DNA of 39,159 bases, taken from an uncultured Halobacteria archaeon (GTDB lineage Archaea > Halobacteriota > Syntropharchaeia > Alkanophagales > Methanospirareceae). The translations under genes were made by a program, and so were the position numbers. The notes under the pieces are model-generated. The model had not been told where the DNA came from. It searched no databases and was given only the letters and a program-made list of their open reading frames with translations. Every line of letters begins with the position of its first letter. The first letter of the stretch is position 1. Of the stretch, positions 4,662 through 24,752 are shown piece after piece. The DNA lies in assembly GCA_964522635.1 (NCBI GenBank), contig CAZFWT010000004.1:11657-50815 (forward strand), given 5' to 3'.

Positions 4662-4705
4662 TCACTTTCAGTCCGCGTATATCTTGGTCTTGGCTTGAAC
4701 ATCGT

Positions 4706-5356: not shown

Positions 5357-5458
5357 TCATTCATTCATCCCCGAAGAGAAGATTGGTCATGGATACGGAA
5401 CAACTTTTTGGTTCGAGCACTGAGCCGCCACGCATCACCCTAGAGCTTACCAGTCGCG

Positions 5459-6283: not shown

Positions 6284-6416
6284 CCACCCTCTGTGACATT
6301 CTGCTTCGCGCCTGCTCGTCCACTGCGAAGCCCGCAAGATATGATAGATATGTATGTAGATAGCATAGCGTGTGCCAGCATATAGAGAGAGAACCACGGA
6401 GGATGGGAGCACTACT

Positions 6417-10068: not shown

Positions 10069-10073
10069 GTTCG

Positions 10074-10655
10074 TTAGCCCTTGCCCTCTCCTGAGCTTAA
10101 GCATGCCCGGAGAAACCGCTCGGACGGATATTCGTGTATAGAGGAGACAATGATCATTCCCGCGCCACACCGGGCAACAACCAGCACCGGGCGAGCACTC
10201 GAATCGGCCTTCACCGTTAAGACCACGTCCCAGTCATCATCCAGCGTCCCCAGATAGCCATCACAGAAACAGACCTCTTGCTCGACGATCCGTGCCGCCT
10301 TATCATCCTTCTTCCGCTCGAGCGGGGCCTGGATATCCTTGCGCACGTACTCAAGCTGCAGTGGCAGCCAATCATAGGCGGTGCTGTGTGCGAGCGCGCC
10401 GGAGACCAGCAGCGTGCCACCGGCCTTGACAAATGAGGTGAGTGCCTCACGGTTGGCTCTGAGCGCCGCGAGCATCCCTGAGAAATACGTGTTCCCAAAG
10501 CCCGCTGGTATAATCACCAATCGAAACGCTCGCCACGAGAAGAACGGTGCGGCGATGAGCTGCGGCTGCACCAGTTTGTACCTGAACCCGTGCTCTTGAA
10601 GATACTGCTCATACGGCGTGTCCCGGTCCCATAGCACTGCAATTTCTGCTTCCAT
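10074..10655 (-). CDS. Hypothetical protein, possibly GATase1-like fold (193 aa)
   Basis: ...FRLVIIPAGFGNTYFSGMLAALRANREALTSFVKAGGTLLVSGA... resembles class I glutamine-amidotransferase-like/ThuA-like folds. The assignment is weak. Confidence 0.5.
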   Translation of the reverse strand: MEAEIAVLWDRDTPYEQYLQEHGFRYKLVQPQLIAAPFFSWRAFRLVIIPAGFGNTYFSGMLAALRANREALTSFVKAGGTLLVSGALAHSTAYDWLPLQLEYVRKDIQAPLERKKDDKAARIVEQEVCFCDGYLGTLDDDWDVVLTVKADSSARPVLVVARCGAGMIIVSSIHEYPSERFLRACLSSGEGKG

Positions 10656-10671: not shown

Positions 10672-10699
10672 GCCGCGAGCCGCGAGCCGCGAGCCGCGA
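10672..10699. repeat. Perfect tandem heptamer (GCCGCGA)x4
   Basis: Read directly: gccgcga gccgcga gccgcga gccgcga. It lies in the 72-nt spacer between mcrC and the 193-aa gene. Confidence 0.9.
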
Positions 10700-10727
10700 G
10701 CGGTTTTATAGAAAGCTACTTACTACT

Positions 10728-11342
10728 TTATTCGTGCGCTTCTGCTGCAAGCTCGCGAAGCGCCGTTTTTACCTTGCTCACAATCTCGTTCAGCTTCGCC
10801 TGGGGCACGCTCTCATGCCGAACAATGCCATCCACGATGTCCATGACCTTACCCGCGGTCTCGCCCTTTTTATACTTCGTGCTTACCCCGATCTCTTCGA
10901 AATCCTCGAAGGATACGGGCGATTGGCAGAGCACAATGGCCGGCGCCTTCACCTTCCGCAAGACGAACCGGACCTTGTAGATGAAATGCACCTTCACGTT
11001 CCCGTGATGCAAGATGAGGAGCTTGTGCTGATTGATGATTTCCACTTCTCGCGGCTCGAGGCCGAAGGCAACTCCGTGGCCGCCACTCCGCGGCGCGTCT
11101 GCCGGGGTGCCGTCACCCGCGTTCAAGATCAGCTCACCCACATCGATCCCATGGCCCCGCAATTCGGTAGTAATCTCGCAGACCGGCTTGGGCACGTGTC
11201 GATATCCGGGCGACATCGCCACCGCGATCACGTCGTTCTTCCAGGCCCTGGCGAAGGTCCCGCGTTGCGCAATACCGCCACCTAATCCGAGCCCCTGCCC
11301 TTTTCTACACGCTACCAGCTGCGTCTCTCTTCCCACCGCCAT
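10728..11342 (-). CDS. mcrC: Methyl-coenzyme M reductase operon protein C (McrC), stand-alone copy
   Basis: 204 aa. MAVGRETQLVACRKGQGLGLGGGIAQRGTFA...VIAVAMSPGYRHVPKPVCEIT...HHGNVKVHFIYK...VLCQSPVSFEDF... matches my recollection of McrC almost motif for motif. Confidence 0.85.
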   Translation of the reverse strand: MAVGRETQLVACRKGQGLGLGGGIAQRGTFARAWKNDVIAVAMSPGYRHVPKPVCEITTELRGHGIDVGELILNAGDGTPADAPRSGGHGVAFGLEPREVEIINQHKLLILHHGNVKVHFIYKVRFVLRKVKAPAIVLCQSPVSFEDFEEIGVSTKYKKGETAGKVMDIVDGIVRHESVPQAKLNEIVSKVKTALRELAAEAHE

Positions 11343-11344
11343 TG

Positions 11345-12967
11345 CTAAGCTGCTACCTCGCTCTCCCCAGTGGTTGTCCTCAAATCCTCCAGCTTCTTGA
11401 CCTTACCTGCCTCCATGTGCGCGATTCGGTCACAGACGTCAGAGGCAAAGTCTATATCGTGGGTAACAATAATAAAGGTCATACCGAGGTTCTCACGGGC
11501 TGCACGTATGGAATCGGCGACGTATTTCTTTGTTATTGGATCCATTGTACCCGTCGGCTCATCGAGCACCGCGATCGCCGGCTCCTTCATCAGGACCTGC
11601 GCGAGCGCGATCCGCTGCCGCTCACCCACGCTCAGTTCGAGGTGCGTCTTGAGCAGTATCTCCTCCGCCTTATCTTCACTGAAGCCGACACTCTGGAGCA
11701 TGAATTTCGCCTTCATTCGCGCAAGCTCAGCCGGAATCCGCATGCCTATACAGGTCGTGAGATTCTCTAACACCGTCCGTTCGGGGTATAAGGAGTATTC
11801 CTGATGTAACATAGCGACCCGCGCGGCCGCCTGCTCGCCCACGCCCGGGGTCGTTGCGCCCCATGCGATCCACACACCGGTCTCCGCAACCCTGCTCACA
11901 TCGATCCACCGTTCCCCGACACGTATTTTAACAGTCCCGCCGGTGACCGGATCGATCTGACAGATAATGCGGGATAAGCTCGTCTTACCCGCGCCGCTCT
12001 TACCCAGCAGCCCGAAGATCTCGTTCTCATAGATGGTGAGCGTAACGTCATCCACCGCCTTGACCATGCCGCGCCAGATGGAGTAGTAGTACTTCTTGCA
12101 GTGCTCGATCTGTATCTTCGGCTCCCCGATCTTCTGGTACTCCTCGCGCTCGATCTCACTCACTTGCTTCTTGAATTCGGCCACGACTTCCTTCGCGTCG
12201 CCATACTGCACCACTTTGCCGTTATCGAGCCATAAGACCTTCTCACTCAGTTCCTCAACGACGTACGGCCAGTGCGAGGTTACGATCATGGTCATACCTT
12301 CTGCGGTGCTCTCTTTCAGTGCCCGGTGCACGAGCTTTGCGGTCTCAACGTCCAGAGTTCCGGTGGGCTCGTCGGCCAGGAGCAACATCGGATCGAGCGC
12401 CAGTTGCCGCGCGAGCACGACACGCTGCTTCTCGCCACCACTGAGGTTGATTGCGGGGAATGAGATTCGATGGATCATTCGTACCGCTTTGAGCAGCTCA
12501 TAAGCACGCCGGAACCGCTTATCGGCCGGGTATTGCCTGCTCTCCAGCGCCTGCAAGACGTTATACATAACGGTGTCGTCGCCGTAGAGCCCGAACGTGC
12601 GCTGGAGCATGATGGCCACCGATCGCTTCACCTTCTTCCGCGCTTCCGCGTCCTTCCAGTAATTCACTTCCTGTAACTCCAGAGCCCCCCCGCACTTTAT
12701 GCAGATCTGCCCAGCCTGGCTCGGTGCCGTTACCCACTCGCAGGAGGGGCACATCGCGACCCGGAAGATGACCTCGCCAGACGTAGGTGCGTATTCCTCA
12801 CTCCCGCGCAGCATATGGAGCAGCGTCGATTTCCCCGCGCCGCTCCTGCCCAGCAGGCCCATGGACACGCCCTCGTAAATATCAAAACTCACGTCCTCCA
12901 GGGCTTTCAAGCCCTCGAACTCCTTGCTTATTCCCCGGACCCTGACAAACGGTTCCTCTTTACCCAT
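11345..12967 (-). CDS. atwA: MCR activation component A2 (double-NBD ABC ATPase), copy 2
   Basis: 540 aa. It has two Walker A motifs (GLLGRSGAGKST, GLLGKSGAGKTS) and two Walker B motifs ([24 protein letters not shown]). It has the A2-typical Cys insertion CPSCEWV...CIKCGG. The stop lies 2 nt before the mcrC start. Confidence 0.85.
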   Translation of the reverse strand: MGKEEPFVRVRGISKEFEGLKALEDVSFDIYEGVSMGLLGRSGAGKSTLLHMLRGSEEYAPTSGEVIFRVAMCPSCEWVTAPSQAGQICIKCGGALELQEVNYWKDAEARKKVKRSVAIMLQRTFGLYGDDTVMYNVLQALESRQYPADKRFRRAYELLKAVRMIHRISFPAINLSGGEKQRVVLARQLALDPMLLLADEPTGTLDVETAKLVHRALKESTAEGMTMIVTSHWPYVVEELSEKVLWLDNGKVVQYGDAKEVVAEFKKQVSEIEREEYQKIGEPKIQIEHCKKYYYSIWRGMVKAVDDVTLTIYENEIFGLLGKSGAGKTSLSRIICQIDPVTGGTVKIRVGERWIDVSRVAETGVWIAWGATTPGVGEQAAARVAMLHQEYSLYPERTVLENLTTCIGMRIPAELARMKAKFMLQSVGFSEDKAEEILLKTHLELSVGERQRIALAQVLMKEPAIAVLDEPTGTMDPITKKYVADSIRAARENLGMTFIIVTHDIDFASDVCDRIAHMEAGKVKKLEDLRTTTGESEVAA

Positions 12968-13000
12968 TTTTCCTCGCCCTTTCTTTTTTCGTTTCGATTT

Positions 13001-13014
13001 GAGTTAAATATAGC
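13001..13014 (-). promoter_or_regulatory. TATA-like box (gctatatttaactc on the minus strand) upstream of atwA copy 2
   Basis: Located in the 72-nt spacer between the two atwA genes, about 40 nt upstream of the ATG at 12967. Confidence 0.3.
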
Positions 13015-13039
13015 GACAGTAACGTGACAAAAGGTGCTG

Positions 13040-14647
13040 CTATTCCTCTGCCCCCCTCAAATCTTCTATCTTCTCCAGTTTACCCTGGTTCATATATGCC
13101 ACTCGATCACACACGGCCTCGGCAAAATGGAGATCGTGCGTAACGATCACGAAGGTGATCCCCAAATTCTCGCGCGCCTTCTGGATGGTCTCGCCGACGT
13201 ACTTCTTCGTATGCGGATCCATCGTCCCGGTGGGCTCGTCGAGGACCGCGATCTCCGGCTCCTTCATCAACAATTGCGCGATGAGAACCCGCTGCCGCTC
13301 ACCCACGCTCAGTTCGAGGTGCGTCTTGGGCAGTATCTCCTCGATCTCGTCATCTGAGAAGCCCACACCCTGGAGCATGTAATGTACCTTCATCTTCGCA
13401 AGATCATCAGGCATATCCAACCCTATGCCGTGCGTGAGATTCGCCCAGACGGTCAATTTGGGGAATAAGGTATATTCTTGATGCAAGACCCCGACGAAAT
13501 AGTGCTTCCAATCGGTCGTGCCGCCGGTGATCACGCCGTCCTTGACGAAGGTCCCGAGATCGGCTTTTGAGGCTTCATACCACTGCTCACCGATGCGAAT
13601 CCAGGCGTAGCCCGCGGTGCTCGGCTCCAAATGACTGACGATCCGCATCAAGCTCGTCTTGCCCGCACCACTATGCCCGACCACACCGAAGATCTCATTC
13701 TCGTGGATGGTGAACGAGACGTCGTCCACGCCCTTAACAACACCACGGGACGCGGAGAGGTAATACTTCTTCACATGCTCGATGCGGATCTTCGGCTCGC
13801 CGAACTTCTTGTACTCGTCGCGCTCGATCGCACCCACTTCCCGCACGAAGTCGTCGATTACCGTCTTGGTATCGCCGTACTCGACTATTTCACCTTTATC
13901 GAGCCAGAGCGTCTTCTTCGCCAGTTCCTGGATCACGTACGGCCAGTGCGAGGTGACCACAAAGGTGGTGCCGCCCTTCGTGCTCTCGATCAGGGCTTTG
14001 TGCACGACCCGTGCCGTCTCATGATCGAGTGTCCCGGTGGGCTCGTCGGCCAGGAGGAGAATGGGCTGCAGCGCCATCTGCCTCGCAAGCACCATGCGCT
14101 GCTTCTCACCACCGCTGAGATCCCGTGTCGCGGGCATATTAGCACGGTGCAGCATCTTTACGGACTCCAGGATCTCATAGGCCCGTTTCATCTGTTTGCT
14201 CTTCGGGTAGCCCGCGCGCTCCAGGGCCTCGAGAACGTTCCAGACGACGCCCTCGTCACTGTAGAGTGCGAAGCTGCGCTGGAGCATGATCGCAATCGCG
14301 GACTTCAGCAGGCGCTGCATCTGATGATCTTGCCAGAAATTCACTTCCTGGAACTCAAAGACACCGCCGCACCGGCTGCAGGTCTTGCCGACGAAGCTCG
14401 GTCCTTCGACCCAGGAACAGGAGGGGCAGATAGCAATCCTGAAGATAATCTCACCGGTATCAGGTGCGTATTCCTTGCTGCCCCGCAACATACGTAGCAA
14501 CACCGATTTGCCCGAACCACTCTTCCCGAGCAGCCCCAGCGGCTCTCTCTCCAGTATATCGACATTGACATTATTCAGCGCAATTTTATCCTCAAAAGAC
14601 TTGCTCACACCGCGTATTTTAATAAAAACCTCACTCTCTTCGCCCAT
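13040..14647 (-). CDS. atwA: MCR activation component A2 (double-NBD ABC ATPase), copy 1
   Basis: Start set at [18 protein letters not shown] (14647), which aligns with the copy 2 N-terminus MGKEEPFVRVRGISKEF and follows a ggggcggagaa SD-like element. The track ORF extends to 14698. Same architecture as copy 2: CPSCSWV...CSRCGG, both Walker A and both Walker B motifs. Confidence 0.85.
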
Positions 14648-14795
14648 TTCTTCTCCGCCCCCTACCATCGCAGTTGCTATGCCTTTCACTCCCTGCACAG
14701 AGCATCACATACCTTTTGCCGCTCTTAGCATATTAAATTGGACTATTTTAGTTATAGCTACCTGTATTTTAGTACTGCTCAGCAGCCTTAAAGTT

Positions 14796-15164
14796 TTACC
14801 GCTTTTTCTTCAACACGATGATATCAGGTCGTGGGGGCGCTTTCGAGCCCGCAAATTCGCGCTTGCAGCGCTCACACAATTGCCGTGCGGTCAAGATCAC
14901 GACCTCCTCGCTCCCCGGTAACTTCCGCGCATAGATGAACTCCGGCTTCACATCCACCGACGCGCTGATCTCCTCGAGCAGTGCAGTGATCTTCTCCCTG
15001 AAGACCTCGACCGCATCGACCTGGAGACCCCGGAGATCAGCGGCAAACCCGGTGCACCCGCAGGCCATGCCGAAGACCTTCGCCTCTGGCACAAACACGT
15101 TCCCGACCAGTTTCCGCAGCTCAGACTCGAGCTTCGTCCTTCCTTCTGTTATCGTCTCCGTCAC
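14796..15164 (-). CDS. Small Cys-containing protein of unknown function (122 aa), coupled to the U32 pair
   Basis: Its start overlaps the upstream U32 gene stop by 4 nt (15161-15164). Contains MACGCTGF and CERC motifs. I recognise no family. Confidence 0.6.
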   Translation of the reverse strand: MTETITEGRTKLESELRKLVGNVFVPEAKVFGMACGCTGFAADLRGLQVDAVEVFREKITALLEEISASVDVKPEFIYARKLPGSEEVVILTARQLCERCKREFAGSKAPPRPDIIVLKKKR

Positions 15165-16177
15165 TTTTTCTGCACCTTCACCACGTTCGTAGTCAGGTCA
15201 TCACAATAATGGCAGGACTCACAGATCTTCTTGCACTTCTGCCACTGCTGGATGCACCCTTCCAAACGCTCGTTATCGATATAAAATGTATAGCTCAACT
15301 CTGCGGGGCAGTCAATGAGCTCGAGGATATTGCCCTGATACGACCGGTGGGCATAGGCGCGCATGCAGTTGACGATCCAGTTCACTGCGTTTGCCCTGCC
15401 CGTGATCTTGAAGTTATCGATCCCCAGCGTCTCGTACTCCTTCAGATCCTCAGGACGTATCCACGGCGACCGGATGAGTTGTGAGGGGTCGCGCACCCGA
15501 ATTGAGATGCACTTATCGAAGTAGTAGTCGCTGAAGATGTTGGCTGATTGCGCGCTCATGAGCGGTGAGCGCGAGGAGGTGATATGGGAGAAGAGGTTGA
15601 AGTGCGCGTGCCGGAAGGGGCATTTGTAGAGGCAACCCTCGTTCACGAGCACCTTGATCTTGCACCGAACCGCCTTCAGGATCGCCTCGAGCATCGCGAA
15701 GTTACGGTTGATGTTCGTATCCACCGCGATGGTGTCGGCACCGAGCTCCTCGAAGAACTCCGCACGCTGCGGTGAATCCACGTGCGCAATGCAGGATACT
15801 ACCGTCTCCATCGGATATTCGCGTAGCAGTTCAATGAAATATGGCTCTGCGACCGTCACGCCGTCGACCTCAGCCTTATTCAGCTCCTCGAAGTACCAGG
15901 TGAAGAGCTTGTAGCCCTCATGTGTCAGGTGATAGCCGCCCAGGCATGAGGGATTGATCACGATATTCAGCTTGATGTCGTGCTGGTGCGCGTACTCGGT
16001 CTGGGCTTTGATATCACTGATACGTGCGGAATGGAGCGTCGCCCGCCCGCTGCCGATCACTTCCGGCGCACCGGCCATATAGACCTCGCTGACCTCGTCG
16101 AGGCCTTCTGCCTCCTTCACCTCGATGATCTCCTGCAGCGCTTCGATATGCCCGGGGTGGGGCACATGGAATTTCAT
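15161..16177 (-). CDS. Peptidase U32-family protein (UbiU/UbiV/RlhA-like putative Fe-S hydroxylase), paralog 2
   Basis: Start taken at MKFHVPHPGH (16177), which gives an ATGA overlap with the paralog 1 stop. U32-like blocks: IKLNIVINPSC, VDGVTVAEPYFIELL, LGADTIAVDTNINRN, KVLVNEGCLYKCPFRH, FKITGRA. C-terminal motif CKKICESCHYC. Confidence 0.75.
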   Translation of the reverse strand: MKFHVPHPGHIEALQEIIEVKEAEGLDEVSEVYMAGAPEVIGSGRATLHSARISDIKAQTEYAHQHDIKLNIVINPSCLGGYHLTHEGYKLFTWYFEELNKAEVDGVTVAEPYFIELLREYPMETVVSCIAHVDSPQRAEFFEELGADTIAVDTNINRNFAMLEAILKAVRCKIKVLVNEGCLYKCPFRHAHFNLFSHITSSRSPLMSAQSANIFSDYYFDKCISIRVRDPSQLIRSPWIRPEDLKEYETLGIDNFKITGRANAVNWIVNCMRAYAHRSYQGNILELIDCPAELSYTFYIDNERLEGCIQQWQKCKKICESCHYCDDLTTNVVKVQKK

Positions 16178-17178
16178 TTGAGTATCGTCAACGCCTCCTG
16201 CGTAAGTCGCTCGCAGTAGCCACACTCGTTACAGATCTTCTTACAGGACTTCCAGTGACTGATGCTATCGTTGAGCTTCTTATTGTCGAGATACAGCAGG
16301 TAGCGCAGCATTTGGGGACAGTCGAGAAGATCGAGCACGTTGCCGTCGAACGAGCGATGGGCGTAGTACCGCATACAGTCAATGATCCAGTTCACCGTCT
16401 TCGTCCGTCCGGATAGCTTGAAGTCCGTAATGCCGATTGCTTCGTATACCGCGAGATCTTCGGGCCGAATCCATGCGGACTTCACGATCTGCACGGGGTC
16501 ACGCAGCCGGAGCGCGATGCATTTATCGAAATAGTAATCGGGCGCCCAGAGCGGTGTCCGCGGTTGATTGAGACTCGAGAGATGCGAAGCGAGATTGTAA
16601 TGCGAATATCTGAACGGACATCGGTAGATGCAGCCCTCGTTCACGATCAACCGCACACTACAGTTCACCGCATTCACGATCCCTTCCAGGAGGTCGAAGT
16701 GACGGTTGATGTTCGTATCAACGGTGATCATATCAGCCCCGAGCTCGTCGAAGAACCGGGCACGCTGTGGCGATTCGACGTACGCCAAGCAGGATACAAC
16801 GGTCTGCATGGGGTAGTCACGGAGCATATCCACGAGATAGGGCTCCGCAACCGTCACCGCATCAACGTTCGCTTTGTTCAGCTCCCTGAAGTACCAGGAG
16901 AACATCTTAAAGCCCTCGAACGAAAGATGGTGCCCGCCCGTGCAGGTGGCGTTCATCGTGAGGTTCATCTTGATCCCATGCTCGTGCGCGTAATCGGTCT
17001 GCTCGCGAATCTCATCGAGCAGAGGGGCATGGAGCACTCCGCGACCGCTCCCCATCACATCCGGCGAGCCGCCCATAAAGACCTCGTCCACCTCTTCCAG
17101 GCCCTCCGCCTCTTTCACCGCGATAATCTCCTGCAACGCGGCGAAATGCCCGGGATGCGGGATTTTTAAGCTCACCAT
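16174..17178 (-). CDS. Peptidase U32-family protein (UbiU/UbiV/RlhA-like putative Fe-S hydroxylase), paralog 1
   Basis: 334 aa, about 60% identical to paralog 2 by eye. Blocks: IKMNLTMNATC, VDAVTVAEPYLVDML, LGADMITVDTNINRH, RLIVNEGCIYRCPFRY, FKLSGRT. C-terminal motif CKKICNECGYC. Confidence 0.75.
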   Translation of the reverse strand: MVSLKIPHPGHFAALQEIIAVKEAEGLEEVDEVFMGGSPDVMGSGRGVLHAPLLDEIREQTDYAHEHGIKMNLTMNATCTGGHHLSFEGFKMFSWYFRELNKANVDAVTVAEPYLVDMLRDYPMQTVVSCLAYVESPQRARFFDELGADMITVDTNINRHFDLLEGIVNAVNCSVRLIVNEGCIYRCPFRYSHYNLASHLSSLNQPRTPLWAPDYYFDKCIALRLRDPVQIVKSAWIRPEDLAVYEAIGITDFKLSGRTKTVNWIIDCMRYYAHRSFDGNVLDLLDCPQMLRYLLYLDNKKLNDSISHWKSCKKICNECGYCERLTQEALTILK

Positions 17179-17205
17179 CGCGCTGATTACCAGTAAGCAC
17201 GCGCT

Positions 17206-17217
17206 CGTTAATAAGTG
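17206..17217 (-). promoter_or_regulatory. TATA-like box (cacttattaacg on the minus strand) for the U32 operon
   Basis: About 33 nt upstream of the ATG at 17178 and downstream of the mtr terminator. Confidence 0.3.
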
Positions 17218-17261
17218 TTTGACCTTCGTCTCGCTCCGCTGACGAGCACACGAAAAGCAAG

Positions 17262-17304
17262 AATACGAAAAAAAGAAAAAAGTGGGGAAAAAATAAATAC
17301 CCCA
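17262..17304 (-). terminator. mtr operon terminator: short hairpin plus oligo-U tracts
   Basis: Minus strand directly after the mtrH stop reads UAAAGUUGGGGUAUUUAUUUUUUCCCCACUUUUUUCUUUUUUUCG. The 5-bp stem is UGGGG/CCCCA and is followed by two U-runs. Archaeal termination uses oligo-T signals. Confidence 0.5.
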
Positions 17305-17307
17305 ACT

Positions 17308-18279
17308 TTAGGCCGTCATCCTTAGTATGGGATGCGGTTCCTCTGCCTCGATGTCGTGCTCTGCCTTCGCCGCCTCTGCAATGATCATGTCCGCCATACC
17401 GACCAGTGGGAACACTTTCGGGGCATTCTCGATAGGCCCATAGAGCACGAAATCGTGCCCTGCCATGATGGGCATGAGACTTGAGGCAATATCGCAGATC
17501 TTGAAGACCTCCTGGCCCAGACCTTCCCAGCCCTGGGGGCCTTTGGTCGCGTGCGCCTTCCGGAATTCCTTCAGCCAGGTCCACGCAGATGGTGCGTTGT
17601 GGATACCCAGGCCGACCGGAAGCCCGTACTTCGATTTGACGGCAAAGCCTGCGGCGACCGACATGCCGGCACCTGAGCCAATGGGAAGTGTTGCCGCGTC
17701 AATCAGCGGCTTCGTGATGCCCAGATCTCTTGAAAAAGCGACTAAGCCTTTCTCAAAAGTCCCAGGATTCTCCAGCAGATCGATCTTCCCTGCGACCGTC
17801 GAATCCTTCGGGTTGAACGCGAGCACGATCGATGCAGATACCGGTGAGTTCTTGATCGCTGCAATCTCTTCCTCCGTGCAGGAGATGTTGATCGAATTGT
17901 AGATCGCCTTCTCCGTCAGGCCGACTTCGTCCGCGTACTTGAGTCCGAACGTCTTCACCTCAGCGACCGTAGAGTCGATCAGGAAGGGCACGTCACTGAC
18001 TCCGGTACAGAATTCGATCTCCTTCTCCATCGCCTCGCCTGATTCCGAGAAGATCTGCATCACGCACGGATTGCCGGTTAAATCCGAGAACTCCTCCTGC
18101 TTCTTCAAGACGTCTTCCGCCGCTTTCTTGTCAAAGATGCCCTTATCCGGATCTTCAACCAGATAGTGCTTCGCATAGAAGATCGTGCCGCAGAGAACCG
18201 TTGCGTGTTGCCCTGGCTGGCCGCCTATCTTCATTCCCGCGATGTCAAATACCTTCTGGTCCTTATCAAATAGATACAT
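17308..18279 (-). CDS. mtrH: Tetrahydromethanopterin S-methyltransferase subunit H
   Basis: 323 aa. Begins MYLFDKDQKVFDIAGMKIGGQPGQHATVLCGTIFY.... Last gene in the canonical mtrEDCBAFGH order. Confidence 0.9.
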   Translation of the reverse strand: MYLFDKDQKVFDIAGMKIGGQPGQHATVLCGTIFYAKHYLVEDPDKGIFDKKAAEDVLKKQEEFSDLTGNPCVMQIFSESGEAMEKEIEFCTGVSDVPFLIDSTVAEVKTFGLKYADEVGLTEKAIYNSINISCTEEEIAAIKNSPVSASIVLAFNPKDSTVAGKIDLLENPGTFEKGLVAFSRDLGITKPLIDAATLPIGSGAGMSVAAGFAVKSKYGLPVGLGIHNAPSAWTWLKEFRKAHATKGPQGWEGLGQEVFKICDIASSLMPIMAGHDFVLYGPIENAPKVFPLVGMADMIIAEAAKAEHDIEAEEPHPILRMTA

Positions 18280-18303
18280 CCTTTCTTCTTCCTCCTTTTT
18301 GTG

Positions 18304-18570
18304 CTATAGCATGAACAACACATACGCGACTATTCCGATTAGTGCGCCGTACAATAGGCCCATAATCAAACCTAGCTTCTCTCCCTGTCGCTGCCACAGC
18401 TCGCCAGCGACGAATTCCACGCGATCGTCCATGTTGTTGATGCGGGCCATCAGCTTGGGGTACTCTGGAGAGGCTATGCTTACCGGAACAGACAATTCCT
18501 TCAGCTCCTCCTCGAGCTCAGCTAACAGTTCTGCTTCGAGCTCCTTTTCCCGTTCCTTCTCTTCACTCAT
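18304..18570 (-). CDS. mtrG: Tetrahydromethanopterin S-methyltransferase subunit G
   Basis: 88 aa with an acidic N-terminus, ...RVEFVAGELWQRQGEKLG... and a single C-terminal TM helix. Position is between mtrF and mtrH. Confidence 0.85.
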   Translation of the reverse strand: MSEEKEREKELEAELLAELEEELKELSVPVSIASPEYPKLMARINNMDDRVEFVAGELWQRQGEKLGLIMGLLYGALIGIVAYVLFML

Positions 18571-18585
18571 TTTTCTTCTCCTCTT

Positions 18586-18777
18586 TTACATCAGCAACTT
18601 CAGCCCGACTGAGAGAAAACTCAGGAATAGCCCGATGGCAAAGCCCTTGACGAAGCCGACCCAGAGTCCCGCTGCGAATCGATTATCACGACCAATCATG
18701 GTGATGAAATGCTTGAGCAGCTCGATTCGTGCCGTGATCAACGCAGTCTCAGGTGTATTTTGGATTACTTTCGCCAT
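18586..18777 (-). CDS. mtrF: Tetrahydromethanopterin S-methyltransferase subunit F
   Basis: 63 aa with a C-terminal TM helix. It immediately abuts the mtrA stop. Confidence 0.8.
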   Translation of the reverse strand: MAKVIQNTPETALITARIELLKHFITMIGRDNRFAAGLWVGFVKGFAIGLFLSFLSVGLKLLM

Positions 18778-19515
18778 TTAGATCACCCCCAGGATGAGCG
18801 GCATCAGAAAGATGAACGCACTGATCAGCCCTGCGATGAGCCCGAGGAACGCGTTTCTGGAGAGCCCTGAGGTCAACTTTTGATCACGCGCGATCAACTG
18901 TGCCTTGTAGGTACATGCCTGCGCGGCCCGGTTGACGGTATCCATCGATGGCGAGGCAGGTCTGGCCAGCGGCATCGCTAATGCAGCACCCACGACCGCT
19001 TCCTCGCCGCCCAGCTTTACGATCAGCGGATCCTCCGGAAAGGCGCCGGGATCTTTTGCCTGTAGCTCCTTTACCTTCGCATTCAGCTTGCCGTAGTCCT
19101 CCTCACCCATCATATCAATGACTTCCACGATCTGCTCTCTGAATCGCTCGATCGCCTTTGTCGGCAGGTTCTCGATGAACGGAATGGCGCCTTTGGTCCC
19201 AATGACCTTATGCGTTGCAGGATCGATCCCGTTCTTGTACAGCGCCATGTGCGTTTCGCCGCTCAGGTGCCCGGGAACTTCCGCCCCGGCACAAATGATG
19301 AATCGGATGTTCGGATTTGAGACGATATTCGCCATGATCTTCTCCAACCCGATGTTCTCCGTCTTATCCGGTCCCTGGATGGCGACTCCTTTCAAGTGCT
19401 CGATATGGAAATACGACCCGTTTGAGGAGATGGCAACGCAACTCATCGGATCACCAACCTCGTAGTCACCGGTGATAAAGGGCCATCCATCCGGAACTTC
19501 TTTCTTCTCTGCCAT
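18778..19515 (-). CDS. mtrA: Tetrahydromethanopterin S-methyltransferase subunit A (corrinoid-binding)
   Basis: 245 aa. Begins MAEKKEVPDGWPFITGDYEVGDP... and contains ...IRFIICAGAEVPGHLSGE.... Has a C-terminal TM anchor. Confidence 0.92.
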   Translation of the reverse strand: MAEKKEVPDGWPFITGDYEVGDPMSCVAISSNGSYFHIEHLKGVAIQGPDKTENIGLEKIMANIVSNPNIRFIICAGAEVPGHLSGETHMALYKNGIDPATHKVIGTKGAIPFIENLPTKAIERFREQIVEVIDMMGEEDYGKLNAKVKELQAKDPGAFPEDPLIVKLGGEEAVVGAALAMPLARPASPSMDTVNRAAQACTYKAQLIARDQKLTSGLSRNAFLGLIAGLISAFIFLMPLILGVI

Positions 19516-19516
19516 G

Positions 19517-19816
19517 TTATACGCCTCCTAATGCTAAGAAGATCAGGGCGATGGCAAGGATACCAAAGGTCACGCCGAGCATGAAGAAGGTCGTGAACCC
19601 CGCCTTTGACATCATGCCCTCCCTGTTCGGCTGTGCGATCTTGAAACTGCTGGTAGGATCAAGGGTGTTCAAGAGCTCATCCACGGCATCCTCGATGACA
19701 TCAAGCTGCTCCTCGAGCGGCGACATGCTCACCTTGTAGAACCCTGCTCGGGCCTCGCCGACCCGCATCAAGTCTGGATCCAGTACAACCCCACATTCAT
19801 CACAAATGGTTATCAT
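19517..19816 (-). CDS. mtrB: Tetrahydromethanopterin S-methyltransferase subunit B
   Basis: 99 aa with a C-terminal TM helix. Position is between mtrC and mtrA. Confidence 0.85.
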   Translation of the reverse strand: MITICDECGVVLDPDLMRVGEARAGFYKVSMSPLEEQLDVIEDAVDELLNTLDPTSSFKIAQPNREGMMSKAGFTTFFMLGVTFGILAIALIFLALGGV

Positions 19817-19835
19817 GTGTCTTCTTGTTCCTCCT

Positions 19836-20702
19836 TTAATCCAGCGTCGTGATCATTCCCGTGCCCACCGTCGCATAGCACTCGTTCATACAGGCTCTGA
19901 TGAACTTCACGTAGAAGTACGCCCATACGATCAGCCCGAAGATGATGAGAGAGATACCGTCCCACGCGCCCAGGCCTCGCCCGAGCACGAACATCGCTGC
20001 TCCCAGGATAATGCAGATCAAACCCGAAATCTCTATGGAGACCATCCGTGTGCGCTCGCGTTGCTCGTCAGGTCCGAGACAGGCGTTGTACGGATGGAAC
20101 ATCCCCATCGCGGTAAAGATGAAGATGAATGCCGCGACGCCGGTCTCGAATACCCAGGTCACCACCTCGCCGAACTCCAGGGTACCGGTGATGATGGAGA
20201 ATTGGAGTAAGACCGCCAGTGTGCCGGCTATGCCCAATTCGCCCATCGCTCGTATCAAATGCGGGATTTTCATCGCGATGTATTTCTCATCATTCCCGAA
20301 GTACCCGGAGACGAGGCCAATCACACCCATGACGATGGCCCCGATCAGGGCCGCGGGATAGATCCCTAATCGCGGGATCGCACCGTACTCGATGACCGCC
20401 AGGCCCATCAACGCCCCGATGAACCCATATCCCGTCCCCAGGACGCCGATAGAGGGCACGCCGGTGCCTAATCCGTACTTCGAGGTCTTCCGGACCGAGT
20501 CATTGCCCCAGAGTATCGCACAGACCAGCCCGATTCCCTTGATCACCGCGGGCAGTCCCGTGAAGATCACGACGATCGCGGCAATGACACCTAAGATGAT
20601 CGCCATCTCTGTCTCTTCGAAGGGGTATTTGAAGGACAACCTTTTCTTCGGTGCTACTGCTTCTTCCTCTTCTTCCTCTACTGCTGCTGGTGTTACTGTC
20701 AT
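19836..20702 (-). CDS. mtrC: Tetrahydromethanopterin S-methyltransferase subunit C
   Basis: 288 aa polytopic membrane protein. Position is between mtrD and mtrB. It has an acidic N-terminal extension (VEEEEEEAV). Confidence 0.88.
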   Translation of the reverse strand: MTVTPAAVEEEEEEAVAPKKRLSFKYPFEETEMAIILGVIAAIVVIFTGLPAVIKGIGLVCAILWGNDSVRKTSKYGLGTGVPSIGVLGTGYGFIGALMGLAVIEYGAIPRLGIYPAALIGAIVMGVIGLVSGYFGNDEKYIAMKIPHLIRAMGELGIAGTLAVLLQFSIITGTLEFGEVVTWVFETGVAAFIFIFTAMGMFHPYNACLGPDEQRERTRMVSIEISGLICIILGAAMFVLGRGLGAWDGISLIIFGLIVWAYFYVKFIRACMNECYATVGTGMITTLD

Positions 20703-20706
20703 ATTA

Positions 20707-21405
20707 TTATAGTCCTCCCAAACCTATCGTCGCAAGCACGACCACGATACCGGCGAGTAACGAGACGGCTAACGACGCGATGAGCGCTTTGGGCAGTCGC
20801 TTGAACTTCGGATCGTGGAATCCCTCGATCGTCCCGCGGATGTTGTAAGCTGCGAGAATCGCATTGGCCACGAAGATGGAGAGTGCAGCAATTGCCGCCG
20901 TGCCCGGTGTGAATTTGGAGTAGTTCAGCAGGGTCCAGTACATGAGTGCACCACCGAACCCACCGAAGAACCCACCCATAGTGCCCGAGACGAAGACCAC
21001 GTTCGGTACGCCGTGCCCATCGGTCTGTGGGGTTTTATACTCCTTCTGCGACTCCTTGGTCACAGGATCCACATCCACACGACCGGAGATCGGGAGCACG
21101 CCACAGCCAAACGCATACAGGATATTCGCCATGAACATCACCACGCAGATCATGATCGTCGCACCGACCGCGCCTGATAGCGCGACCAGCCAGAGGCTAT
21201 CGGTGAACGTCGCCACGTTTGCCGCGGTGAATAACCCGGTCAACGCCGCGCCGAGCATGATCTGAACGGTTCCCGTCGCAATCCCTGTTGCAGTGCCCAT
21301 GGCCGCGGGGGCACCGCCCACTGGTAAGAGGTGTGCACCTAAACTCGCCAGTAACCCACCAATCACCACATATACCACGATAAATATCGCTATTATTGGG
21401 TCCAT
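20707..21405 (-). CDS. mtrD: Tetrahydromethanopterin S-methyltransferase subunit D
   Basis: 232 aa polytopic membrane protein. The length matches MtrD, and it lies between mtrE and mtrC. Confidence 0.88.
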   Translation of the reverse strand: MDPIIAIFIVVYVVIGGLLASLGAHLLPVGGAPAAMGTATGIATGTVQIMLGAALTGLFTAANVATFTDSLWLVALSGAVGATIMICVVMFMANILYAFGCGVLPISGRVDVDPVTKESQKEYKTPQTDGHGVPNVVFVSGTMGGFFGGFGGALMYWTLLNYSKFTPGTAAIAALSIFVANAILAAYNIRGTIEGFHDPKFKRLPKALIASLAVSLLAGIVVVLATIGLGGL

Positions 21406-21412
21406 CTTCTTA

Positions 21413-22384
21413 TCACACTCCTACGAAAGGTCCACATTTCGCTCGTACCCACCTAACGAAGATCACGTTGCCCACGACGAACGCCGCCACTATCAGAAGT
21501 CCAACGACGATGCCGCCGATCGCTGCCATATCGCCGCCCATGGTCAGGTTCGGTAAGAAGCCGCCGAGCATCATTCCCACCAGCGTCCGCCAGTTCTCGA
21601 AGAGAATGATGAGCCCGAAGGTCATCCCCGTACAGGGGCCACCGAACTTCGCGCAGAAGCTTGCAATGTCCTTCTGTGTCCGTATCCCGCATTCCGCGTA
21701 TCGTGTGATCTTACCGTGGTACACCACACGTTTACCCTCACCGAACGGTCTGTCCTGGAACTCGCGCTCCGTTCCGTAATGCACATCACCGGTTGAGGAT
21801 CCGATTGAGCCGACCGTAATGCCCCAGATGAAGCCCAGCAAGGGTAAGGCAAACGGATGGTTCAGCGCCGGATTCCCTGAGAGTGTCCCCACGTTGCTCT
21901 GAATGTATGCAATACTGGTAATACAGAACGTCGTCATAAACCCGTGCGTGGCAATAGGTAGCAGGTGGCCATAGAACACATCGAGATAAATAGGCTGTGA
22001 GAATCGCTTCTGCGCCGCTGTCCTGCCGCAGTGCGCGGTCGTCGCGAAGATCATGTGGATAAGCGCGGCTCCTGCGACACCCAGAGGGATCGCAACGACC
22101 GCGGCCTTCCACGGAGCATCAGGAACCAGGGGTTCAAGCTTCAGCAAGAACATCCAGGCGATGGTCCCTGCGACCGCGCAATACATAGCATTCGATAGCG
22201 GCTCACCGGAAATCGCTTTGTTAAAGAATCGATGTACCTGACCGACCTGTGCTGCCAGTTGCACCTGCGAGTTTGGATTGCTCTGAGATCCAATATCTGA
22301 CTCGATGTCCTCGAACGTGCACGCAATGAACGCCAGGAACGCTATCACTAACATCCATGCAAAAAGCAACACTACTTGTAGCAT
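21413..22384 (-). CDS. mtrE: Tetrahydromethanopterin S-methyltransferase subunit E
   Basis: 323 aa. The N-terminal ...FEDIESDIGSQSNPNSQVQLAAQ... is the conserved MtrE motif. It is the first gene of the operon. Confidence 0.9.
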   Translation of the reverse strand: MLQVVLLFAWMLVIAFLAFIACTFEDIESDIGSQSNPNSQVQLAAQVGQVHRFFNKAISGEPLSNAMYCAVAGTIAWMFLLKLEPLVPDAPWKAAVVAIPLGVAGAALIHMIFATTAHCGRTAAQKRFSQPIYLDVFYGHLLPIATHGFMTTFCITSIAYIQSNVGTLSGNPALNHPFALPLLGFIWGITVGSIGSSTGDVHYGTEREFQDRPFGEGKRVVYHGKITRYAECGIRTQKDIASFCAKFGGPCTGMTFGLIILFENWRTLVGMMLGGFLPNLTMGGDMAAIGGIVVGLLIVAAFVVGNVIFVRWVRAKCGPFVGV

Positions 22385-22425: not shown

Positions 22426-22700
22426 TTTCGCTACGCCACGGTGAGCAAAGATGGAGGTAGAGACGAAGTACCTTTCGGTTTGGATGACGGGTGTTACCCA
22501 AACGGGTTTGCTATGGCCCGCACCGCACGCTCGCGCTCACGAATGGACATACAAAGCAAGCGAGCTCACGCCACGCCGCAACGCAGATAGTCACTCGCGG
22601 CGCGCGTGCGCACCGAGCAAAAACGAAAGGTTTATTTCGCAGCCGCGGTGTCTTATATGTTTTACTTACGTACACAGGGGTAGGGGATGACCAGTCAAGG

Positions 22701-24140: not shown

Positions 24141-24143
24141 CTA

Positions 24144-24157
24144 TCTATATATAAATG
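24144..24157 (+). promoter_or_regulatory. TATA box (tctatatataaatg) upstream of the Mmp17-like gene
   Basis: Strong TATA element about 50 nt upstream of the ATG at 24201. A GAGG lies 5 nt before the ATG. Confidence 0.35.
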
Positions 24158-24200
24158 AGTCCTGCGAACATTAGGTTATTGTAGCACGGAGCATGAGGTC

Positions 24201-24749: not shown

Positions 24750-24752
24750 TGA

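Follow-up and report, generated by a model that had tools for sequence, protein, structure and literature searches.

U32 proteins are known as O2-independent aromatic-ring hydroxylases that use prephenate as the oxygen donor (PMC10990095; PMC6747719). UbiU-UbiV, together with UbiT, hydroxylate ubiquinone in Proteobacteria without O2, while RlhA (23S rRNA ho5C2501) and TrhP (tRNA ho5U34) carry out Fe-S-dependent, prephenate-linked and O2-independent hydroxylation of pyrimidine rings. In the Fe-S hydroxylation factors of this family, the four-Cys [4Fe-4S] motif is typically CX6CX15CX3/4C (Pelosi 2019). The hydroxylase activity of UbiU/V has so far not been reconstituted in vitro (PMC10990095), and no U32 enzyme has been demonstrated to have a protein substrate.

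Another group of described systems comprises the McrA modification enzymes encoded near mcr, namely YcaO/TfuA, Mmp10, MgmA and McmA, whose patchy phyletic spread tracks non-essential modification. We know of no hydroxylase assigned to MCR so far, nor of any enzyme that installs the hydroxy-tryptophan of McrA. This residue has been described in the MCR of ANME-1, ANME-2c, ANME-2d and Methanotorris formicicus (PMC12413448; PMC7581889; PMC9118554), while the MCRs of Methanosarcina and of the M. marburgensis/thermautotrophicus group are without it.

A locus that resembles both groups in part is found in the window, the whole 39,159-nt stretch of DNA analysed here from an uncultured archaeon of the Alkanophagales. 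Three minus-strand genes, encoding two U32 proteins (U32A and U32B) and a DUF5402 protein, lie between mtrH and atwA-atwA-mcrC (Table 1) and are translationally coupled; the two short overlaps on which an initial annotation had based this coupling are both visible in the sequence. The ORFs are real, far beyond chance, since their homologues number in the hundreds. For U32B, a mechanical ORF list gives an upstream GTG start at 16225, and the length used here is counted from an ATG in line with the homologues; the GTG start of the DUF5402 gene likewise agrees with homologue N-termini. Within the mtrH spacer, a TATA-like element (ACTTATTAAC) lies about 30-38 nt 5' of the U32A ATG, and the spacer is compatible with an archaeal terminator followed by a TATA box. 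The MtrH encoded upstream of U32A matches TIGR01114 with 401 bits, and the mtr gene order of the window recurs in related loci. The AtwA pair scores 616 and 673 bits against TIGR03269 and McrC 252 bits against TIGR03264, and the two ORFs that follow mcrC are kept 3' of it in ANME-1. The window also encodes a YcaO McrA-glycine thioamidation protein, which is a known MCR modification enzyme.

Table 1. Features of the U32-DUF5402 locus and its surroundings in the window.
Feature	Coordinates	Strand	Basis	Remarks
U32A ORF	17178..16174	minus		334 aa, ATG start
U32B ORF	16177..15161	minus		338 aa from the ATG matching homologues
DUF5402 protein ORF	15164..14796	minus		122 aa, GTG start
ATGA stop/start overlap, U32A/U32B	16174..16177	minus	sequence	
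GTGA start/stop overlap, U32B/DUF5402	15161..15164	minus	sequence	
N-E-G-C183-x3-C187-P, U32A residues 180-188	16615..16641	minus		putative Fe-S ligand motif
U32A C79 and C220	16942-16944 and 16519-16521	minus		putative co-ligands of C183/C187
C-x3-C-x2-C-x2-C, U32A residues 312-322	16213..16245	minus		putative second four-Cys metal/[4Fe-4S] site
U32B equivalent of C-terminal CX3CX2CX2C	15203-15235	minus		
Spacer after mtrH stop	17179..17307	minus	sequence only	129 nt, oligo-T runs
mtrE-D-C-(B)-A-F-G-H operon	17308..22384	minus	Pfam + TIGR01114, ORFs	mtrH last (17308-18279)
Tandem component-A2 (atwA) pair and mcrC	10728..14698	minus	profiles	atwA 13040-14698 and 11345-12967; mcrC 10728-11342
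orf10074 and orf9154	9154..10655	minus		193 aa, no family; 338 aa, weak SAM-methyltransferase match
YcaO McrA-glycine thioamidation protein	855..2078	plus	TIGR03266, 457 bits	

U32A and U32B are members of the Peptidase_U32 superfamily and belong to a distinct archaeal clade within it, which is monophyletic with a bootstrap of 100 in an NJ tree. Against PF01136, whose curated cut-off is 22.4 bits, U32A scores 34.2 bits over profile positions 6-64 only and U32B 40.1 bits over positions 5-192 of 233, and hhalign to E. coli UbiU, UbiV, RlhA and TrhP gives a probability of 98.6% (E 8.5e-16) at about 13% identity, which bears out the assignment made from sequence blocks in the initial annotation. 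These blocks (VDxVTVAEPY, LGADxIxVDTNINR, VNEGCxYxCPFR and FKxxGR) and the C-terminal CX3CX2CX2C are found in both proteins as described there. Both are modelled as TIM barrels of the U32 kind. For the AF2 model of U32A (pLDDT 93.9, pTM 0.92), Foldseek returned 5d88 as the top match (E 1e-15, TM 0.76 on target) and below it generic TIM barrels with E > 1e-6; a sequence-profile search of the PDB likewise ranks 5d88 first (E 3.3e-31). This entry, MK0906 of M. kandleri, is the only solved U32 structure and the closest solved relative, and it shares the cysteine equivalent to C79. Unlike the window proteins, MK0906 lacks NEGCxxxCP and reads AITFRDP at that place; the M. kandleri U32 encoded beside DUF5402 (P0110) is another paralogue.

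The pair had been annotated as UbiU/UbiV-like, with the small protein in the place of UbiT. As in UbiU-UbiV-UbiT, the window has two adjacent U32 paralogues and a small third gene, with the superfamily and the TIM barrel in common; hhalign pairs C183, one of the barrel-face cysteines, with C169, a cluster ligand of UbiU, and the host is a strict anaerobe, where hydroxylation would have to be O2-independent. The likeness weakens beyond this, because the low identity noted above is joined by the lack of an NCBIfam equivalog match (no family at E <= 1 for U32A, two spurious weak matches for U32B) and by a non-canonical Cys spacing, C...CX3CX32C, as opposed to CX6CX16CX38C in UbiU and CXnCX12CX3C in UbiV. 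The invariant C-terminal CX3CX2CX2C is an addition relative to both, and the third protein is a DUF5402 member without UbiT/SCP2 similarity (BLASTP E 6.9 against E. coli UbiT), whereas UbiT is an SCP2 lipid binder. To our knowledge, the hosts of the module make no ubiquinone. Neither U32A nor U32B is orthologous to UbiU or UbiV, nor to RlhA or TrhP. The latter two share the U32 domain but are longer (653 and 453 aa, taken from gene coordinates), while U32A and U32B have PF01136 only, without the C-terminal extensions; a dedicated DUF5402 partner, linkage to mcr/mtr and sightings in MCR/ACR archaea only also set the module apart from them.

All 12 cysteines of U32A align with cysteines of U32B, which adds one (C308), in keeping with the earlier statement that every Cys is conserved between the two. 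Eight per protein are invariant across the family (76 sequences, bacterial relatives included) and make up two four-Cys sets. The set assigned to the catalytic face of the barrel consists of C79, C183, C187 and C220, and NEGC183x3C187P, itself invariant in the 76 sequences, sits in the AF2 model at the C-terminal tip of one of the barrel strands. The second set, CX3CX2CX2C, is equally invariant, bacterial relatives included, and the model places it between two helices at the very C-terminus. The canonical CX6CX15CX3/4C spacing is absent and four other invariant cysteines occupy the equivalent region; as the motif differs from the canonical one, the chemistry could differ as well. Each U32 subunit is predicted to bind Fe-S clusters, and the number is probably two. 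A radical SAM enzyme was considered and rejected, since there is no PF04055 match, the CX3CX2C stands at the C-terminus and not in the first barrel strand, and a fourth Cys is present.

The 122-aa protein matches DUF5402 (PF17393) with 132.3 bits over profile positions 6-119 of 120. It has exactly four cysteines, C35-G-C37 and C97-x-x-C100, as the initial annotation had noted of its CGC and CxxC motifs, and these are invariant in 25 diverse DUF5402 members and in 65 locus-derived sequences, which points to a putative metal site. Its AF2 model is confident (pLDDT 91.6), and a fold search of the PDB found no match. DUF5402 may be a partner that binds metal and serves either to transfer electrons or to present the substrate.

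DUF5402 adjoins U32 in 74 of the 86 informative loci, most lineages have a single U32 copy, and in some ANME-1 genomes U32A and U32B are at separate loci. The ancestral conserved unit is one U32 plus DUF5402, as opposed to a paralogue pair with an accessory protein. The pair, which is 57% identical by BLASTP (194/340, E 2e-165; about 60% in the initial annotation), arose by a recent, lineage-specific duplication inside ANME-1/Alkanophagales, in contrast to the ancient split of UbiU and UbiV. U32A forms a clade with an NJ bootstrap of 100, is 0-7 points below U32B in identity to archaeal single-copy orthologues, and is passed over in favour of U32B as the best match of single-copy loci from other lineages; it is the more derived paralogue, limited to ANME-1/Alkanophagales. 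Translational coupling of the two recurs in 31 loci, and all invariant residues are kept in both. As the paralogue pair is lineage-specific and split in some ANME-1, a heterodimer of the kind proposed earlier may not be obligate. The linkage to mtr/mcr recurs in other lineages, with U32 and DUF5402 as the conserved unit.

All taxonomically named carriers of U32+DUF5402 are MCR/ACR-encoding archaea (methane- or alkane-cycling), and the unit adjoins mcr, mtr, atwA or mcrC genes in several different layouts. In Methanoliparum, the order is mcrBDCGA, U32, DUF5402 and a B12-radical SAM gene, and in Methanoperedens it is U32, DUF5402, DUF2098 and mcrBDGA. In ANME-1, the module lies between mtrH and atwA/mcrC, while in one ANME-1 sub-lineage U32A without U32B is directly 5' of mcrBGA, beside YcaO and methyltransferases (as in locus L013). 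Four ANME-1 loci keep the order of a tandem rhodanese gene that overlaps the U32 start, U32A, a 187-aa SAM methyltransferase and mcrBGA. In Methanolobus, Methanococcoides and ANME-3, the unit is directly 5' of mtrE, so that about 20 Methanosarcinaceae loci neighbour mtr and not mcr, and a further Methanosarcinales MAG shows a loose linkage to mtrE. The initial annotation had placed the module among methane-metabolism genes, and this linkage is repeated in Methanoliparum, Methanoperedens, Methanosarcinaceae and ANME-1. The unit also occurs in M. kandleri, M. tenebrarum and M. jannaschii, where the U32 gene directly precedes that of the DUF5402 protein MJ1658; no mcr/mtr linkage was seen at the module loci of Methanocaldococcus, M. 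tenebrarum, M. kandleri and Syntrophoarchaeum. Homologue searches did not find the module in Methanosarcina or in the M. marburgensis/thermautotrophicus group. A gene for a 2x[4Fe-4S] ferredoxin, overlapping the U32 start in M. kandleri, is consistent with a redox enzyme, and bacterial 8-Cys U32 relatives, like the Methanoliparum copy, adjoin B12-binding radical SAM genes. Of the grounds for rejection named in the initial annotation, neither lack of a PF01136 match, nor unlinked orthologues in the RlhA/TrhP clades, nor a unit that is not conserved was found outright.

The explanation that we favour, held tentatively and at somewhat less than even confidence, is that U32+DUF5402 is an O2-independent McrA tryptophan hydroxylase. 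By analogy with characterised U32 enzymes, the complex would hydroxylate an electron-rich aromatic ring without O2, with prephenate presumably the oxygen donor, to give 6- or 7-hydroxy-tryptophan of McrA. For ANME-1, the ancestral enzyme would consist of U32B and DUF5402, and U32A would be a derived copy that joins U32B in a heteromer or else has acquired a second, related job. Hydroxy-Trp of McrA was among the targets suggested earlier, and it gains support because both the synteny and the published distribution of the modification fit. Of the hydroxy-Trp groups, the phyletic comparison covered ANME-1 and ANME-2d, and the module is present in both, as it is in Methanocaldococcus; M. thermolithotrophicus, M. 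shengliensis and Ca. Ethanoperedens may lack it. Methanocaldococcus and Methanotorris belong to the same family. Like the known McrA modification genes, the module is patchy and adjoins mcr or other modification genes (L013; Methanoliparum, where mcrA, the U32-DUF5402 pair and the B12-radical SAM gene follow one another); unlike them, it belongs to an unrelated enzyme family, and we infer its link to MCR. No link of U32 or DUF5402 to MCR modification was found in the literature searched, and a preprint in which the U32 superfamily is enriched in ANME-2/3 versus methanogenic Methanosarcinaceae offers no interpretation.

Several observations count against tryptophan as the substrate. M. kandleri has the module and its MCR structure has not been reported with hydroxy-Trp; at the 2.7 A resolution of that structure, a hydroxyl might have escaped notice. 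Linkage to mtr only, or to neither mcr nor mtr, in several lineages and the non-canonical Cys motif point the same way. The modified residue also differs in place, being alpha333 at C7 in ANME-1 and alpha429 at C6 in the others (PMC9118554).

The synteny indicates MCR in general and not tryptophan specifically, and a different MCR modification or substrate, such as didehydroaspartate (by beta-hydroxylation and dehydration), S-oxymethionine or a small molecule of the CoM/CoB pathway, has a small but appreciable chance. Didehydroaspartate and S-oxymethionine are likewise without known enzymes (PMC7581889), and the former accompanies hydroxy-Trp in the MCRs of ANME-2c and ANME-2d (PMC12413448). 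However, didehydroaspartate is found in the MCR of M. marburgensis and M. barkeri (PMC7581889), where the module was not seen, and is absent from that of M. formicicus, in which hydroxy-Trp is believed to take its place (PMC7581889; PMC9118554); the atoms concerned, Asp C-beta and Met S, are also not part of an aromatic ring such as U32 enzymes act on. There is a similarly small but appreciable chance that the module, or specifically U32A, functionalises a carbon of F430; in ANME-1, this would prime C17(2) to receive sulfur and then a methyl group, with 17(2)-methylthio-F430 as the product. The rhodanese-U32A-methyltransferase-mcrBGA order matches sulfur delivery, C-H activation and S-methylation. 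Modified F430s exist in Methanocaldococcus, which carries the module. U32A is confined to ANME-1/Alkanophagales, and methylthio-F430 is reported for ANME-1 only (PMC12413448; PMC9118554), yet ANME-2d uses ordinary F430 (PMC9118554) and has the pair beside mcr. Moreover, C17(2) is a non-aromatic carbon, the formation of McrA thioglycine and methyl-His/Cys would explain the rhodanese and methyltransferase equally well, one would more conventionally expect a radical SAM methylthiotransferase, and the window layout has no rhodanese or 187-aa methyltransferase homologue nearby. A combined scheme is rather unlikely, in which U32A was recruited from tryptophan hydroxylation to 17(2)-methylthio-F430 formation together with the rhodanese and the SAM methyltransferase, while U32B+DUF5402 stayed the McrA tryptophan hydroxylase.

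We also doubt that the module serves Mtr or other corrinoid enzymes as an Fe-S system, whether by reductive reactivation, cofactor tailoring, or [Fe8S9C] delivery or repair in Mtr and the MCR activation complex. Its two opposite mtr placements (after mtrH in ANME-1, before mtrE in Methanosarcinaceae), the looser mtrE linkage of the additional MAG, its place in the window, with mtr on one side and atwA and mcrC of the activation complex on the other, and the B12-binding radical SAM genes beside the bacterial 8-Cys relatives and the Methanoliparum copy would suit such a role, and an L-type cluster has been reported in Mtr (bioRxiv 10.64898/2026.07.03.736320) and in the activation complex (PMC12176620). 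Against this, nearly all methanogens have Mtr, its corrinoid and the L-cluster, but the module is patchily distributed, with no copy seen in M. mazei-type Methanosarcina or in M. marburgensis, from which those structures come. L-cluster synthesis is already explained by NifB, reported as essential (PMC12176620). The module has no similarity to known corrinoid activators, and the Syntropharchaeia and Methanoliparum copies show linkage to mcr or to neither, not to mtr. The hydroxybenzimidazolyl cobamide of MtrA and the methanophenazine head group, both once suggested as targets, are likewise disfavoured by the phyletic pattern. RNA, a further early suggestion, is improbable as the substrate, even though RNA hydroxylation accounts for two of the three U32 functions characterised so far (PMC10990095; PMC6747719), one database record labels an ANME-1 homologue 'RlhA/YrrN/YrrO', and the neighbours in M. 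tenebrarum and M. jannaschii include RNA methyltransferase-type genes and neither mcr nor mtr. For an enzyme acting on an rRNA or tRNA pyrimidine as RlhA and TrhP do, the methane-gene neighbourhood would be incidental, but at least four lineages show juxtaposition with mcr or mtr, in layouts independent of one another. All named organisms with the pair encode MCR/ACR, and there is no RlhA/TrhP equivalog match. We know of no ho5C- or ho5U-type nucleoside that is a hallmark of these archaea. A true peptidase is highly improbable, even though most database records name the homologues 'collagenase-like PrtC protease', in line with the family's historical name; eight invariant cysteines in two four-Cys sets, the conserved four-Cys partner and the ferredoxin overlap in M. 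kandleri all speak against it, as do the characterised U32 members, which are Fe-S hydroxylation factors (PMC10990095; PMC6747719).

If U32A does take part in F430 methylthiolation, U32 chemistry would widen from C-O to C-S bond formation. As for McrA tryptophan hydroxylation, the U32-DUF5402 module is a good candidate for the oxygen-free enzyme that hydroxylates an MCR tryptophan.

Between the mtr operon, whose last gene is mtrH, and the genes for component A2 (atwA) and mcrC, the initial annotation had placed a translationally coupled trio, and this is borne out by three minus-strand ORFs, where an ATGA overlap joins the U32 paralogues U32A and U32B and a GTGA overlap joins U32B to a small four-cysteine protein. 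The spacer between mtrH and U32A is 129 nt long, T-rich and carries a TATA-like element in its sequence. The paralogues, estimated earlier at about 60% identity, are 57% identical, and the cysteine conservation proposed between them also holds, with all 12 cysteines of U32A matched in U32B, which has one additional cysteine. Downstream of the trio are two tandem atwA genes and then mcrC, followed by an unassigned ORF (orf10074) and a weakly methyltransferase-like ORF (orf9154), and a YcaO thioamidation gene also lies inside the window. The nearest loci are those of Methanospirareceae/ANME-1 MAGs, with protein identities of 93-95%.

Features of the window and of the homologous loci (L) and protein records (P) compared with it
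Feature	Location	Strand	Remarks
U32A	17178..16174	minus	ORF, 334 aa
U32B	16177..15161	minus	ORF, 338 aa from homologue-matching ATG
DUF5402 ORF	15164..14796	minus	122 aa
Two tandem component-A2 (atwA) paralogues	11345-14698	minus	before mcrC
GCCGCGA tandem repeat	10672-10701		perfect, 7 nt, 4.3 copies; mcrC-orf10074 spacer
orf10074	10074-10655	minus	193 aa; no Pfam or NCBIfam match
orf9154	9154-10170	minus	338 aa; SAM-methyltransferase matches sub-threshold only
Hydantoinase/caprolactamase-like A and B pair, SAM methyltransferase, N-formylglutamate-amidohydrolase-like gene	3090-8393	minus
DUF2114, DUF2113, MCR_C-domain (Mmp-type) cluster	22491-25646	plus	divergent from mtrE
DHOD B-type NAD-binding/Fe-S electron-transfer module fused to DHO_dh catalytic domain	33863-35659	plus	single ORF, 598 aa
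Split-layout ANME-1 loci	L012, L013, L016, L020 (e.g. L013:8034-13513)		one ANME-1 sub-lineage; rhodanese 494 aa, SAM methyltransferase 187 aa
Second Methanoperedens U32 paralogue (orphan)	P0291; L097:8001-9044		adjacent DUF5402 absent
Double-DUF5402 proteins	P0334, P0337, P0339, P0341, P0342, P0344, P0349, P0351, P0353; L088:9044-9805
Bacterial-relative loci	L082, L083, L091, L092, L093		B12-binding radical SAM genes always beside

The window also holds a cluster of DUF2114, DUF2113 and MCR_C-domain genes, so that a large share of the genes for activating and maturing MCR is concentrated in one region. The tandem atwA pair before mcrC is common to many ANME-1 loci, and atwA is single or missing at that position in others (e.g. 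L004, L005, L032, L037). In ANME-1 loci orf10074 likewise follows mcrC, and a homologue with 29-32% identity follows mtrH in Methanolobus-type loci, making it a second uncharacterised protein with linkage to mcrC and mtr. Next to it, orf9154 is kept in ANME-1 and may be an MCR methyltransferase; a homologue also lies beside YcaO in L013, and an overlap with orf10074 of about 97 nt at the called start leaves its true start uncertain. The hydantoinase/caprolactamase-like region lies between the YcaO gene and the mcrC cluster, and the electron-transfer module of the 598-aa fusion is of the dihydroorotate dehydrogenase B type. Scans for tRNAs, Rfam families and tandem repeats returned nothing notable of relevance to the module.

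Both large proteins pass the Pfam cut-off for U32 (PF01136; 34 and 40 bits against 22.4), and a 20-sequence profile matches E. coli UbiU, UbiV, RlhA and TrhP with 98.6% probability over 227 columns at about 13% identity, with no NCBIfam equivalog match for either. Among relatives only MK0906, a U32 protein of M. kandleri, has a solved structure (5d88), which is matched at E 8.5e-20 by single sequence, 3.3e-31 by profile and 1e-15 by Foldseek, the AF2 model being a confident TIM barrel (pLDDT 93.9). Eight cysteines are invariant across 76 homologues. Four of these (C79, C183, C187 and C220 in U32A) form a first set, in which C183 is aligned to C169, a cluster ligand of UbiU, and C79, C183 and C187 are located at the C-terminal ends of the barrel strands in the AF2 model, and the others form the C-terminal motif C312-x3-C316-x2-C319-x2-C322. 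A radical SAM reading of this second motif was ruled out, as a PF04055 match is absent. Two clusters are probably bound by this U32 clade, whose cysteine spacing differs from the canonical U32 motif CX6CX15CX3/4C. Profile matches, fold and cysteine pattern thus place U32A and U32B in a distinct clade of the U32 superfamily and not among the orthologues of UbiU/V, RlhA or TrhP.

The third protein belongs to DUF5402 (PF17393; 132 bits), and its four cysteines, noticed earlier as CGC and CxxC motifs, are invariant among diverse members. It is without similarity to UbiT. The analogy with UbiU, UbiV and UbiT drawn by the initial annotation fails on orthology, cysteine motif and third protein alike. 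The AF2 model of DUF5402 is confident (pLDDT 91.6); Foldseek returned no fold relatives in the PDB (best E-value 0.07), and a sequence search of the PDB gave no match. The family is tiny: at 50% identity, 1.84 billion representatives include 32 clusters of it; a word-based homologue search gave close ANME-1 relatives only, and its wider range comes from the representative search and cluster look-ups. About 9 of the 32 clusters consist of 230-255-aa proteins from Syntropharchaeia and Alkanophaga in which DUF5402 occurs twice in tandem, with two matched stretches each, which suggests that DUF5402 works as a dimer. Syntrophoarchaeum carries several U32 copies, with a ThiS-like ORF placed before one of them and overlapping it.

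Scanning a single genome for each species gave at least 588 relatives, from which 78 loci were kept. DUF5402 stands directly 3' of a U32 gene in 74 of the 86 loci with enough downstream sequence, so that the conserved unit is one U32 gene plus DUF5402. The 12 exceptions include M. kandleri, where Pfam nevertheless detects DUF5402, together with bacterial relatives, the orphan Methanoperedens paralogue, which clusters with Methanosarcinales copies, four 'split' ANME-1 loci and the ANME-1 contigs L006 and L010. Paired U32 genes occur in 31 loci, every one ANME-1-like. In a neighbour-joining tree the U32A (bootstrap 100) and U32B (87) clades are sisters (99) nested in an archaeal clade (100), and archaeal single-copy orthologues are consistently closer to U32B than to U32A, which indicates a duplication within ANME-1/Alkanophagales with U32A as the derived copy. 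The putative heterodimer envisaged earlier builds, in this lineage alone, on a simpler unit, and it is U32 plus DUF5402, rather than the trio, that is conserved.

Carriers of the module that bear a name are ANME-1, Alkanophagales, Syntropharchaeia (in several copies), Methanoliparum, Methanoperedens (ANME-2d), Methanosarcinales MAGs, ANME-3, Methanolobus, Methanococcoides, Methanothermobacter tenebrarum, a Methanobacterium MAG, Methanocaldococcus and Methanopyrus, all of which encode MCR or its alkyl counterpart ACR; in M. jannaschii the DUF5402 protein is MJ1658, preceded by a U32 gene. The homologue searches returned no protein from Methanosarcina or the M. marburgensis/thermautotrophicus group, where close relatives would be expected to rank high. 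Contigs labelled Nitrosotalea or Desulfobacteria bear ANME-1 mtr or mcrC genes and are probably mis-binned public MAGs; ANME-1-type U32, DUF5402, mtr or mcrC genes are found under these and the Dehalococcoidia and Desulfuromonadales labels (L008, L009; P0129, P0176, P0220). Bacterial relatives, about 35% identical, keep the eight cysteines, lack DUF5402 and adjoin B12-radical SAM genes in lipid-like clusters, which suggests a lipid or natural-product role; LuxC/LuxE, MMPL and BcrAD/DUF2229 genes are also present in Dissulfurirhabdus, and a molybdopterin oxidoreductase lies near the U32 relative in L091 and L092.

The fused ANME-1 layout runs mtrE to mtrH, U32A, U32B, DUF5402, (atwA, atwA) and mcrC, and other ANME-1 loci have only U32B and DUF5402 after mtrH. 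In the split layout a PNPOx-like gene, a tandem rhodanese gene overlapping the U32 start, U32A and a SAM methyltransferase gene precede mcrB-G-A, with YcaO, a methyltransferase 60% identical to orf9154 and two small radical SAM genes upstream, and this region looks like an island of MCR-modification or cofactor-tailoring genes. In Methanoliparum mcrB-D-C-G-A is followed after an 83-nt gap by U32, DUF5402 and a B12-radical SAM gene, and in Methanoperedens U32, DUF5402, two small ORFs and DUF2098 precede mcrBDGA. In Methanolobus, Methanococcoides and ANME-3 (about 20 loci) mtrE lies directly downstream of U32 and DUF5402, and in another Methanosarcinales MAG the pair lies 7.7 kb upstream of mtrE. 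That these arrangements differ while all adjoining the methyl-CoM steps of the pathway favours a functional link over inherited gene order. Linkage to mcr or mtr recurs in several lineages but is absent from the M. tenebrarum, M. jannaschii, M. kandleri and Syntrophoarchaeum loci; the U32 gene of M. kandleri overlaps at its start with a gene for a 2x[4Fe-4S] ferredoxin. The initial annotation was right in its observation and partly right in its general idea: the locus holds a probable Fe-S module of the U32 type with ties to methane metabolism.

Nearly all biological methane is made or consumed by MCR, whose active-site region carries unusual modifications, several of which lack a known enzyme. 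Hydroxy-tryptophan was reportedly first seen in 2012, in an ANME-1 MCR. The modification is 7-hydroxy-tryptophan in ANME-1 and 6-hydroxy-tryptophan in the MCRs of ANME-2c, two ANME-2d strains and Methanotorris formicicus, and it is unreported for M. marburgensis, M. wolfeii, M. barkeri and several others (PMC12413448, PMC7581889, PMC9118554). According to reviews its enzyme is not known (PMC7581889), and a 2025 structural paper on ANME-2 proposes none. The U32 proteins characterised so far serve as Fe-S factors in hydroxylations of aromatic rings that need no O2 and draw their oxygen from prephenate (PMC10990095, PMC6747719). MCRs with hydroxy-tryptophan occur in kinds of organism that carry the module, which itself is seen in ANME-1 and ANME-2d. 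The best explanation, put forward tentatively and at somewhat less than even odds, is that U32 and DUF5402 constitute an O2-independent tryptophan hydroxylase of McrA, in which the Fe-S clusters and DUF5402 would provide an electron path or a substrate-presenting part. The analysis shows the family, the fold, the invariant cysteines, the partner, the restriction to certain taxa and the synteny; cluster binding, hydroxylase chemistry and substrate are inferred. Two caveats apply: the Methanosarcinaceae linkage is to mtr rather than mcr, and M. kandleri carries the module while its MCR is without reported hydroxy-tryptophan. The M. kandleri MCR structure is of low resolution. Our literature searches found no relevant work on DUF5402, MJ1657/MJ1658 or U32 with mcr or mtr, and none linking U32 or DUF5402 with MCR hydroxy-tryptophan; one preprint records, uninterpreted, an over-representation of U32 superfamily members in ANME-2/3 compared with methanogenic relatives.

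Of the targets suggested by the initial annotation, two are disfavoured by the distribution of the module. Hydroxylation of the methanophenazine head group was rejected since Methanocaldococcus, Methanopyrus, M. tenebrarum and ANME-1, none of which is known to contain methanophenazine, have the pair, and it is not seen in Methanosarcina. The 5-hydroxybenzimidazole of the MtrA cobamide, which derives from AIR via a ThiC-like enzyme and belongs to a cofactor that is, as far as we know, universal in methanogens, was set aside on the patchiness of the module. Didehydroaspartate was likewise rejected, being present in M. marburgensis and M. barkeri (PMC7581889), where the module is not seen.

Among the remaining readings, the split ANME-1 layout of rhodanese, U32A, methyltransferase and mcrBGA fits a part for U32A in making 17(2)-methylthio-F430, which we consider unlikely, and action on another MCR modification or substrate is unlikely to the same degree. 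A little below these comes a role in Mtr/corrinoid or Fe-S cluster handling, with which mtr adjacency and the L-type cluster newly reported in Mtr (bioRxiv 10.64898/2026.07.03.736320) agree, but which is weakened by the patchy module distribution and by NifB (PMC12176620). Biosynthesis of the L-cluster ([Fe8S9C]), considered on account of the placement between mtr and atwA/mcrC, was rejected on the same two grounds, NifB already covering it and the module not being universal, and survives within that low-probability role. RNA hydroxylation is improbable for these proteins, which fall outside the RlhA and TrhP orthologues, and a true peptidase is very improbable. The genes already carry the annotations 'U32 family peptidase' and 'DUF5402 family protein', with no assigned function found for them.

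A two-gene candidate for McrA tryptophan hydroxylation makes the origin of MCR hydroxy-tryptophan open to direct experiment, and it is relevant to making faithful recombinant ANME MCRs, which in current hosts come without their native modifications. If the reading is true, this enzyme would be the first of the U32 family to act in protein modification, and it would give a first function to DUF5402, a family apparently limited to MCR-bearing archaea.
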